DNA of 64,000 bases from a virus, in the IMG/VR virus record IMGVR_UViG_3300025435_001056, positions 96,001 through 160,000 of that record; one strand, 5' to 3'. Each line of letters begins with the position of its first letter. The first letter of the stretch is position 1. The notes beneath the pieces were generated by a model. It did no database searches. It saw nothing but the letters and a program-made list of their open reading frames with translations, and was not told the DNA's origin. The position numbers were made by a program, and so were the translations under genes. This document shows, piece after piece, positions 24,095 to 26,516 of the stretch.

Positions 24095-24781
24095 ATGAAG
24101 CGTATCTTATTATCGTTATTACTAGTAGTCAGCAGTTTGGCAACAGCAGCAGAAGTACGGCAGGATCAGGTAGTGTTGGCAGACAACACGACTTTCAGCG
24201 GTCAGATGGCGGAGCATGCCGCTAGTTTCGTTCGAAGCACTGCCAATACCTTAACAGCACCATTCTTGTCACAGCAGGATGTTGAGTGCTTGGCCCGTAA
24301 CATATTTTACGAAGCCGGATCGGAACCCTTAGAGGGCAAGGTGGCCGTGGGCATGGTCACAATCAATAGAACCCAGGACGATCGATACCCACAAGATATC
24401 TGCGGAGTAGTAAAACAACGCACAGTGATCACAGTACCACAACAGGTCACTCAAGTCAAGACAGTCAAAGAAGGTTGGCTACTACCACCCCGGCAGGTGG
24501 TGGAAACTCGAACTCAACGGGTAACTCGTGCCATATATCAGTTTAGTTGGGTAGGACAACGCAATCTGCGCATACGCGAAGATGATCCGCGCTGGATCGA
24601 AAGCCGCGCTGTGGCCGAAGAACTGGCCCGCGGCGGCTACGAAACATGGCAAGAAAAGTATAGCGAAGCCATGAATTTCCATGCGGTGTATGTGAATCCG
24701 GGCTGGCGTTTAAAGCGCATTGGCCGGGTAGGAAATCACATATTTTATAAAGGAAACGCACCTGTTCAACAGGGTGGTTGA
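24095..24781 (+). CDS. Cell wall hydrolase (SleB/Hydrolase_2 family)
   Basis: CLARNIFYEA.SE...GK.AV..V..NR, QFSW, FHA.YV.P.W, G.HIFY motifs; signal peptide; SD aaggagg. Confidence 0.9.
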   Translation: MKRILLSLLLVVSSLATAAEVRQDQVVLADNTTFSGQMAEHAASFVRSTANTLTAPFLSQQDVECLARNIFYEAGSEPLEGKVAVGMVTINRTQDDRYPQDICGVVKQRTVITVPQQVTQVKTVKEGWLLPPRQVVETRTQRVTRAIYQFSWVGQRNLRIREDDPRWIESRAVAEELARGGYETWQEKYSEAMNFHAVYVNPGWRLKRIGRVGNHIFYKGNAPVQQGG

Positions 24782-24806
24782 CCAAAAACTCGCAAGGTGT
24801 TATAAT
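24778..24806 (+). promoter_or_regulatory. sigma70-like promoter
   Basis: TTGACC-17-TATAAT. Confidence 0.75.
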
Positions 24807-24838
24807 TGTAGTATGAATAACACTTGCGAGTCGAAATA

Positions 24839-25234
24839 ATGGCATTCCATCTTGAAGGACCGTGGTTAAGCACAACTGGCAAAAAGCGAGGCCCCCGTAA
24901 ATGGGCCAGTTCCGAAGCCAAACAATTAGCTCAAAAACGGCAGGCTGAATGGGATCGTAAACTGATTCAGTTTGAAAAGATGGCGCCTAAATTTAGTACA
25001 GGACCTTATAATGCTCCAAGAAAAACAATACACGACTTTATACCAAAAACTCCACCAGGGCGCGAAACAGTTGCTATCCCTAGTCAGGATACTGGTTGGG
25101 TTGCCTGCGTAAAAGCACAAGATACCGAATATACCGGTACCAAAGTAAAAGGTATTGGCACCATGCACAAATCCAATGCTGTGCCTATTTTCTCCGATGA
25201 CGAAGCAAAAGATATAAGTAAAATGCGTCGCTGA
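24839..25234 (+). CDS. Conserved T4-like phage hypothetical protein
   Basis: YTG..VKGIGTMHKSNAVPIF...A.DIS.MRR C-terminus. Confidence 0.75.
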   Translation: MAFHLEGPWLSTTGKKRGPRKWASSEAKQLAQKRQAEWDRKLIQFEKMAPKFSTGPYNAPRKTIHDFIPKTPPGRETVAIPSQDTGWVACVKAQDTEYTGTKVKGIGTMHKSNAVPIFSDDEAKDISKMRR

Positions 25235-25250
25235 AAAAGGAGATAGTGTC

Positions 25251-25469
25251 ATAGCAAAAGAAGAAGTAATCAAAATGGACGGGTTAATAGCCGAAGTGCT
25301 ACCCAATACCCAGTTCCGTGTGGAAATTGAAGGATTTGAACGAGCTATCTTGGCTACTTTAAGTGGACGCATGCGGCAAAACAATATCAAAGTGCTAGCC
25401 GGTGATACGGTAGAAATGGAATTTAGCCCTTACGACCTAACTCGCGGTCGTATTACCCGACGCCGATAA
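25251..25469 (+). CDS. infA: Translation initiation factor IF-1 (probable ATA start)
   Basis: (M)AKEEVIKMDG...LPN..FRV...SGRMR.N.I.VL.GD.V..E.SPYDL.RGRI; SD AGGAG 8 nt before ATA. Confidence 0.9.
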   Translation: MAKEEVIKMDGLIAEVLPNTQFRVEIEGFERAILATLSGRMRQNNIKVLAGDTVEMEFSPYDLTRGRITRRR

Positions 25470-25477
25470 ATATCTGT

Positions 25478-26020
25478 ATGCGTGAAATAATTGACCTAGT
25501 AGAAGCTTCTACCCGACCAGCCAAGCTGGAAACCACAACCTTGCCCTACACTCACAAGGCCTTGGAACCGGTTATGAGTGCAGATACCATTGAGTATCAT
25601 TACGAACATTTGGCCAAGGGCTATGCAAAGAAATACAATGCAGGCGAAGGCGACCCTGACTTTAATCGTGCTGGAAGTTTCCTGCACAACAAGTTCTTCC
25701 CACAGTTGCGTGAACCTCGCGGTGCCAATAGACCCAAGGGTGCAGTATTGGAACTGATTGAAACCAAGTTCAAAACCTACGAAGACTTTAAAGCAGCAGT
25801 TAAAGAAGTGGCCATGAAGATCCAAGGAAGTGGTTGGATATATCTATCAACCGGTGGCGAAATCAAAACCATTCGCAATCATGCTGTTCGTACCGATATC
25901 TGTGTCTTGATTGACTGGTGGGAGCACTCGTGGAGTTTGGATTATCAATGGGACAAAGAGAAGTATTTGGATAACATCTGGAAGATTATCAACTGGGATG
26001 TTTGCAACGAACGGTTGTAG
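25478..26020 (+). CDS. sod: Fe/Mn superoxide dismutase
   Basis: LPY...ALEP, HY..L...Y, FLH..FF, GSGW and DWWEHS motifs. Confidence 0.9.
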   Translation: MREIIDLVEASTRPAKLETTTLPYTHKALEPVMSADTIEYHYEHLAKGYAKKYNAGEGDPDFNRAGSFLHNKFFPQLREPRGANRPKGAVLELIETKFKTYEDFKAAVKEVAMKIQGSGWIYLSTGGEIKTIRNHAVRTDICVLIDWWEHSWSLDYQWDKEKYLDNIWKIINWDVCNERL

Positions 26021-26048
26021 TCATAAATACTCGTGGGAACACGCAACC

Positions 26049-26516
26049 ATGAGAACAACCAAAAAACACAGACGCATTTACGAAGATTATTATAATGTAA
26101 GATTGCCAAGCATTATTGAAATACATCATATTGATGGCAATCACGATAACAATGATATCACAAACTTAATGGCAGTTACTATCGAAGAGCACTTTGAAAT
26201 TCATAGACAACAGGGCGATTACGCTGCGGCATTTAGAATATCACAAAGAATGGAAGTTAGCAAAGAGGAAAAAAGTAGATTGGCATCCTTAGCCGCAACC
26301 AAAGCCAATGCAGAAGGAAAATGCGGGTTTAAATTGGGTCATGCTTCGATCGCTGGAAAGGTAGGCGGCAAAAAAGGTGGCGCCTATGCTAAGGAAAACC
26401 GTACAGGAATATTTGCATTAACACCCGAACAGAATAAACAACGACATTTCAATTCTGTAGTAACCAAAATGATTAAAGCCGGCAAAGCAAGTGCTTGGCC
26501 AAGAGAGGAAATATGA
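26049..26516 (+). CDS. HNH homing endonuclease
   Basis: [17 protein letters not shown]...EH motif; own TAAATA upstream. Confidence 0.8.

Follow-up and report, generated by a model that had tools for sequence, protein, structure and literature searches.

A phage gene for initiation factor IF1 with a probable AUA start codon behind a strong Shine-Dalgarno sequence

The IF1 gene and its immediate surroundings

We analyzed a stretch of 64,000 nucleotides (the window; positions 96,001 to 160,000 of IMG/VR record IMGVR_UViG_3300025435_001056) from a large freshwater phage. The complete record comprises 176,632 bp and is estimated to be about 51% complete, which puts the phage genome at roughly 340 kb. 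At the locus under study, a gene for a bacterial-type translation initiation factor IF1 (infA) follows a gene for a 131-aa protein and precedes one for superoxide dismutase (SOD). The following features, numbered by position in the window, were identified.

24778..24806, plus strand: sigma-70-like promoter match, TTGACC-17-TATAAT with TG; 11/12 consensus positions, a consensus match alone
24839..25234, plus strand: 131-aa gene, phrog_27048, putative protein; C terminus ...DISKMRR-TGA
25203..25281, plus strand: near-identical block of ~77 nt in the pairwise alignment of the window with lineage L097 (~752-830), with a 1-nt indel in an A-run
25213..25220, plus strand: TATAAGTA motif, one mismatch to the T4 late-promoter consensus TATAAATA
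25238..25242, plus strand: Shine-Dalgarno sequence (SD) AGGAG, 8 nt (ATAGTGTC) 5' of ATA and 32 nt 5' of the internal ATG
25251..25253, plus strand: ATA, proposed initiation codon (initiator tRNA, fMet), homologous to the TTG, ATG, ATT, or ATC starts of relatives
25251..25469, plus strand: infA coding sequence, bacterial-type IF1, 72 codons plus TAA; PF01176 over its full length
25275..25277, plus strand: internal ATG, Met9; start chosen by the gene caller (64-aa product) and a conserved IF1 residue
25465..25480, plus strand: junction of IF1 and SOD, GATAAATA-N5-ATG; a late-promoter-like motif overlaps the IF1 stop codon TAA (25467-25469)

Translated from 25251, the 72-aa product matched the Pfam family PF01176 (IF-1/eIF-1A) over model positions 1-64 of 64 (E = 3.6e-18; 65.4 bits, with a cut-off of 30.2). 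It aligned from residue 1 with the products of 80 bacterial and 80 viral IF1 genes, which gives strong comparative support to the original prediction that ATA restores the conserved (M)AKEE.IKM N terminus. The N-terminal segment AKE(E/D)xI(K/E)(M/V)xG is present only if the start lies at 25251. The core GRMR..I....GD.V..E.SPYDL.RGRI is conserved as well, consistent with binding in the 30S A site and with IF2/IF3 stimulation. Identity was 58-92% within a large clade of viral IF1 genes and at most 61% to bacterial IF1, where the best matches were scattered over many phyla. Accordingly, the viral genes constitute an old, separate clade without host signal, and our attempt to infer the host from IF1 failed. 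Among INPHARED phages, a megablast search with 24800-26100 returned no match, and tblastn found distant IF1 genes alone, 45-54% identical.

The start region reads CGC TGA AAA AGGAG ATAGTGTC ATA GCA AAA GAA GAA GTA ATC AAA ATG GAC GGG, which confirmed that AGGAG precedes ATA by 8 nt. We also verified the claim that the upstream frame holds no ATG, GTG, or TTG. The IF1 frame is shut by TAA at 25215-25217, and the 11 codons from there to ATA (GTA AAA TGC GTC GCT GAA AAA GGA GAT AGT GTC) include neither these nor CTG. No canonical in-frame start occurs between this TAA and ATG 25275, and a listing of open reading frames with canonical starts contains just the 64-aa form that begins at 25275. The SD cores of this genome lie 4-9 nt 5' of start codons according to a crude gene-start model, whose background start-codon frequencies are rough.

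Three other properties that the start region might have were considered and rejected. A structured RNA element masking the SD or the start was not found: the fold of 25195-25310 is no stabler than those of shuffled sequences (z = +0.82), and the initiation region is unstructured. Small out-of-frame ORFs that cover the start (here GTG-TCA-TAG; ATG or GTG in relatives that start with ATT) are not kept across lineages with AUH (AUA, AUU, or AUC) starts. An altered genetic code with ATA as Met was also rejected, as every relative has Ile or Val opposite the ATA of codon 13. We searched for tRNA genes as possible readers of an AUA start and detected none in the window or in the 176-kb record.

Most relatives keep the 131-aa gene in synteny with IF1, and it nearly always lies directly upstream. 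Distant homologues of its product occur in Delftia phage PhiW-14, Acidovorax phage ACP17, and Synechococcus phage BUCT-ZZ01. In the window its stop codon (25232-25234) is 3 nt 5' of the SD and 16 nt 5' of ATA. This proximity, together with the conserved synteny with a gene ending in ...MRR-stop, would suit an IF1 that is made as a fusion to the 131-aa protein, by frameshifting or read-through at CGC-TGA, or strictly by re-initiation after it; in the L097 lineage both genes even share one frame, with TGA alone between them. In the window, however, the two genes do not share a frame and the in-frame TAA (25215) closes the IF1 frame, and relatives whose IF1 starts with ATG have intergenic spacers with their own motif. 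Because of the 1-nt indel, sister lineages differ in how the two frames relate; a recoding geometry is therefore not conserved, and frameshifting and read-through were rejected. We consider a fusion or strict re-initiation product extremely improbable. Termination-coupled re-initiation at AUA is compatible with our main explanation, namely, that AUA is the start codon of IF1.

Conservation of the start region and choice of start codon

To ascertain that ATA is genuine, we inspected Logan contigs from four further freshwater runs, which matched 25100-25500 with 0 differing letters. Three of the four span 25251-25253 and agree on ATA; the fourth ends at 25252. The IF1 core shares 91% identity with P0066, a database protein of 64 aa. 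Nine contigs, drawn from at least eight samples of JGI and ENA, encode P0066 in the gene order cell-wall hydrolase, 131-aa gene, IF1, and then SOD and Fe-S protein. Each of the nine has the sequence AGGAG-ATAGTGTC-ATA-GCAAAAGAAGAAGTAATCAAA-ATG. Regionally, this lineage (L097) shares about 84% nucleotide identity (80-85%) with the window, and 35% of the third codon positions of IF1 have changed. Altogether, three diverged sister lineages, represented in many samples, have ATA, SD, and spacing as in the window.

Within the ~77-nt block that is nearly identical between the window and L097 lie the TATAAGTA motif and the SD as well as ATA and the first 9-10 codons of IF1; the flanks of the block are just 80-85% identical. 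We read this block as a putative promoter-like motif followed by a leader and the initiation region. It also preserves synonymous sites in the last 10 codons of the 131-aa gene and has no stable RNA fold.

A scan of JGI metagenomes with a pattern of ATH plus the IF1 N terminus yielded 21 contigs. All of them carried a true IF1 gene with ATA, ATT, or ATC and with AGGAG 5-8 nt upstream. No fewer than five lineages have ATA (the window with L097-L106; L117/L122; L114/L120; L125; L126), no fewer than four have ATT, and ATC was found in L113 and L080. In IMG/VR, the ATY pattern recovered the four known AUY genes and 11 unrelated matches, and the strict ATA+IF1 pattern gave no match besides the window's own record. 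The latter result, and the fact that ATG to ATA is a single transition, would agree with a sequencing or assembly error or with a recent private mutation, a knockout on the way to a pseudogene. Such an origin is hardly credible given the identical letters from four further runs, the ATA codons of the nine sister-lineage contigs and of the four other ATA lineages, the ATT and ATC codons that always accompany an optimal SD in further lineages, and a gene that is intact and constrained. The closest relatives show ATA, not ATG, which disposes of a private mutation.

Among 80 IMG/VR viral loci sampled without bias (58-78% aa identity), the start codon was TTG in 52 (51 aligned plus L049, in which TTG is displaced one codon later), ATG in 24, ATT in 3, and ATC in 1; in proportions, the clade has ~64% TTG, ~30% ATG, ~5% AUH, and no GTG. 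At the homologous codon of 80 distinct relatives, TTG occurred in 40, ATG in 21, and ATA, ATT, or ATC in 19, an AUH share that is inflated by the targeted scan. Phage IF1 resembles bacterial chromosomal infA in fold, length, and the N-terminal (M)AKE..I.M/V.G motif. The starts differ: the phage clade is rich in TTG, whereas infA in 80 bacterial species begins with ATG (~57), GTG (~13), or TTG (~10), mostly with ordinary SDs, and never with AUH. As to the prediction that related phages conserve ATA, ATT, or ATC, several lineages do keep AUH, but the majority have TTG or ATG. With AUH in 4/80 unbiased viral loci plus the window and in 0/80 bacterial infA genes, AUH as a family-wide hallmark was not borne out. 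On the gene tree, about nine changes connect AUH and canonical codons, although counts of independent origins are rough for a weakly resolved tree of 213 nt. The clade of the window on this weakly resolved tree comprises 13 AUH and 4 TTG genes, and the third position alternates between A and T.

Two observations concern the bacterial genes themselves. Several Clostridia MAGs in the bacterial control start infA with TTG. The Streptococcus infA loci (L162, L166, L168, L174, L176, L178, and L181) have GTG behind GGAGG in all those sampled.

Start codon and SD are coupled in the phage family. All 19 distinct AUH genes have an SD of at least 5 nt in length at a distance of 5-8 nt, a regularity beyond chance, and no SD lies at 4-9 nt in any of the 40 TTG genes or 21 ATG genes. 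In 15 of the 40 TTG genes an SD is found at 11-13 nt, the others have none, and an SD is absent from all 21 ATG genes. The flanking genes use SDs at similar rates across the three classes (24%, 23%, and 17%), and so the coupling is not a host effect. In many relatives of the TTG class, the SD is supplied by the final codons of the upstream 131-aa gene, ATG-AGG-AGA-TAA.

We next compared selection along the AUH genes. The pN/pS ratio is 0.26 in codons 2-8 and 0.21 in codons 10-72, and codons 2-8 never contain indels or stops; a ratio of 0.26 in this segment implies that the N-terminal extension is translated. These data bear on the possibility that the internal ATG 25275 is the only start, that the protein is a shortened IF1 of 64 aa, and that ATA and the SD are left over from a start since lost. 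Gene callers choose this codon (as in P0066). It is the sole canonical start, its Met9 is conserved in most relatives, and a purine-rich, weakly SD-like GAAGAAG sits 8 nt ahead of it. Yet the strong SD is 32 nt from ATG 25275 and 8 nt from ATA, and codons 2-8 are in frame and under purifying selection in the 19 AUH genes. GAAGAAG and Met9 also occur in IF1 genes with canonical starts, where they do not serve as the start, and the ~77-nt block conserves codons 1-9 between lineages that are 15-20% apart elsewhere. Moreover, two AUH-start genes lack Met9, which is replaced by Leu in L036 (ATT) and L126 (ATA); the next canonical in-frame codon is at position 34 in L036 and at position 12 in L126. 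An internal-only start is consequently improbable, and ATG 25275 is probably not the main start of IF1. Relatives, SD position, and the AUH genes without Met9 all favor the view that ATG 25275 was annotated as the start through a gene-caller artifact. Some initiation at 25275, giving a 64-aa isoform, is possible from the sequence.

In two further lineages, the canonical codons that could compete are poorly spaced from the SD. The sole upstream in-frame TTG of L114/L120 is 1 nt past the SD, whereas ATA is 7 nt past it. L207 has an ATG just 2 nt from AGGAG, whereas its homologous ATT is 8 nt away. Together, these comparisons indicate that AUA 25251 is very probably the functional start of phage IF1.

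Promoter-like motifs and three initiation layouts

An NTAA[AG]TA motif is present upstream of IF1 in 67/80 relatives. Its position is 5-7 nt 5' of ATG starts (18/21) and 17-35 nt 5' of TTG and AUH starts. We take this motif to resemble the T4 late promoter TATAAATA. ATAAATA is the top-enriched 7-mer ahead of open reading frames in this genome (29-fold). For the full 8-mer TATAARTA, the window shows no enrichment (3 observed versus 4.9 expected), whereas the looser NTAA[AG]TA is enriched before open reading frames.

In the 176-kb record, the motif ends 4-8 nt before the start of 16 genes, of which 16/16 begin with ATG and 0/16 have an SD. Where it is 9-40 nt away, SDs are frequent and GTG or TTG is sometimes used. 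This pattern suggests that the 16 motif-proximal ATG genes represent a large class of leaderless or nearly leaderless transcripts. If NTAA[AG]TA is a promoter, the motif-proximal class would be leaderless, which requires AUG. The SOD gene next to IF1 exemplifies this second type of initiation region in the genome; its ATG (25478) is 5 nt 3' of the late-promoter-like motif and lacks an SD. Ahead of IF1, TATAAGTA may likewise act as a promoter, with an mRNA 5' end predicted ~25 nt before ATA and a leader containing the SD. A weak sigma-70 match, ATGACG-16-TAAAAT (25197-25224), overlaps TATAAGTA. Farther upstream, the sigma-70-like match at 24778-24806 may be the promoter for a bicistronic transcript of the 131-aa gene and IF1. 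Lying ahead of the 131-aa gene, it would allow IF1 to be reached both by an early host-type promoter and by the late-type motif.

The initiation regions of the family follow three layouts. In the first, ATG without an SD is placed 5-7 nt past NTAA[AG]TA, probably on a leaderless transcript. The second has TTG with an SD at a poor spacing of 11-13 nt, or TTG without an SD. In the third, AUA, AUU, or AUC is served by a perfect SD at 5-8 nt. The combination of ATG and SD is found in none of the 80 distinct relatives. Judged from these genes, the IF1 family seems never to join a strong start codon to a strong SD, and AUA appears to be one state of this design.

Downstream of IF1, lineages differ in the genes that lie between IF1, SOD, and the Fe-S gene. 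In the window, an HNH endonuclease open reading frame (25911-26516) is located between SOD and the Fe-S (IscA-like) gene. In the L097 lineage (997-2816), a radical-SAM gene and a 231-aa gene are inserted between IF1 and SOD.

Expression level, start-codon proofreading, and related systems

According to our model, AGGAG would anchor the 30S subunit 8 nt upstream of the start in an unstructured leader, and initiator fMet-tRNA would pair with AUA 25251 through a third-position mismatch. The predicted product is the full 72-aa (M)AKEEVIKMDG..., in which ATG 25275 would encode an ordinary internal Met9. Selection may hold IF1 synthesis low or conditional, and an AUH start would additionally tie output to IF3-centered start-codon proofreading and to the nutritional state of the host. 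We infer that the IF1 initiation region is weak or capped and that expression is low or tunable and sensitive to conditions. It seems that the phage requires IF1 in capped or conditional amounts, which would link a phage translation factor to a genome with many SD-less genes.

Published work illustrates how AUA starts behave. In Staphylococcus aureus, the AUA starts of infC, ccpN, and citZ were mapped by Ribo-RET, have extended SDs, and give 10-30% of AUG output in a medium-dependent manner (PMC13009471). In Escherichia coli extracts, an AUA-infA mRNA with an optimized initiation region was translated at 0.95 of the AUG level in rich-medium extract and at 0.56 in poor-medium extract, and ppGpp inhibited it strongly (PMC5499595). 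A 10-fold excess of IF3 caused a 20-25% loss on this mRNA in poor-medium extract and none in rich-medium extract; unlike AUA, an AUU start is strongly sensitive to IF3, and UUG and AUG are treated as canonical (PMC5499595). IF3, supported by IF1, discriminates against noncanonical starts (PMC5499595; PMC9031893), and extra IF1 has no effect on noncanonical initiation in wild-type E. coli (PMC6868393). Leaderless mRNAs are inhibited by high IF3 and stimulated by IF1 and IF2 (PMC9031893). infC uses AUU, AUC, or AUA for its autoregulation (PMC5499595; PMC13009471).

By analogy with infC, AUA might serve negative feedback: IF1, from phage and host, would act with IF3 to reject the AUA complex, so that the phage factor is made only when factor activity per ribosome is low. 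The cited roles of IF3 and IF1 in discrimination, the infC precedent, and the sensitivity to high IF3 that the inferred leaderless AUG layout would share are in keeping with such a circuit, as is the absence of relatives that pair ATG with an SD. On the other hand, most relatives use UUG or AUG, both canonical to IF3, and AUH in just ~5% of the unbiased sample weighs against feedback as a property of the family. In addition, AUA is only marginally IF3-sensitive in vitro (PMC5499595), extra IF1 was without effect in wild-type E. coli (PMC6868393), and a search of the 176-kb record, itself ~51% complete, turned up no IF3 gene. Feedback of this kind is a tentative and, on balance, doubtful proposal. 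We regard as unlikely the broader idea that phage IF1 synthesis is wired to the host initiation state, with all three layouts disfavored under high IF3-centered proofreading. If it were true, phage IF1 would be made only when initiation factors limit per ribosome, as by a homeostat of the infC kind for a second factor, and IF1 could boost the many SD-less and probably leaderless genes of the phage (16 in the 176-kb fragment).

Whatever its regulation, a functional AUA start would have close parallels in bacteria. In codon position, SD spacing, and conservation, the phage gene agrees with genes that pair an AUH start with a strong SD (infC, pcnB, ccpN type). Like infC, which starts with AUU or AUC in E. 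coli and its relatives and with AUA in S. aureus, it is an initiation-factor gene with a long-kept AUH start and a good SD, and in infC output is tied to start-codon proofreading by the AUH codon (PMC5499595; PMC13009471). It differs in being a phage-borne infA, in that AUH is confined to a minority of the family and the rest have UUG or SD-less AUG, and in that IF1 is an auxiliary fidelity factor. The same anatomy, an AUA or AUU start behind a well-spaced strong SD with both elements conserved, is found in ccpN (AUA), cvfC1 (AUU), and citZ (AUA) of S. aureus and Bacillus subtilis, whose output is 10-30% of that from AUG and depends on the growth medium (PMC13009471). Those starts were mapped by Ribo-RET and reporters in a cultured Firmicute, whereas the start of the phage gene, which encodes a translation factor, is predicted from comparison with relatives.

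IF1 genes of huge phages (Lak phages and Sinorhizobium phage Phosso; PMC7162821) likewise encode a bacterial-type protein of 72 aa in large genomes and are presumed to redirect host translation. The freshwater clade is distinct from these, with 58-92% identity within it and at most ~54% to INPHARED records. Start codons were not treated by Al-Shayeb et al. in their 2020 account of huge-phage IF1 (PMC7162821). Both phage IF1 genes (PMC7162821) and the class of AUH starts with strong SDs were thus known already, and an AUH-initiated infA is a new member of that class. We found no report of one in the literature. After infC, it would be the second initiation-factor gene with a conserved near-cognate start. 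The homologous series, in which AUG lacks an SD, UUG follows a distant one, and AUH follows an optimal one, constitutes a natural set of initiation regions validated by evolution. It can be used to probe the trade-off between start-codon and SD strength, and the sensing of IF1 dosage through initiation fidelity.

The start correction also has consequences for annotation and applies equally to all AUH lineages named above (those with ATA, ATT, or ATC). Gene callers truncate IF1 to 64 aa, as in P0066, or pick implausible codons, such as a TTG 1 nt past the SD in P0117/P0118, and as a result of miscalled starts, IF1 counts and alignments for large phages are slightly wrong. Finally, P0003/P0004 and P0117/P0118 are the same genes entered twice, with residue 1 alone differing (JGI gives L and ENA gives M for TTG), which makes first protein letters unusable for counting ATG versus TTG across sources.
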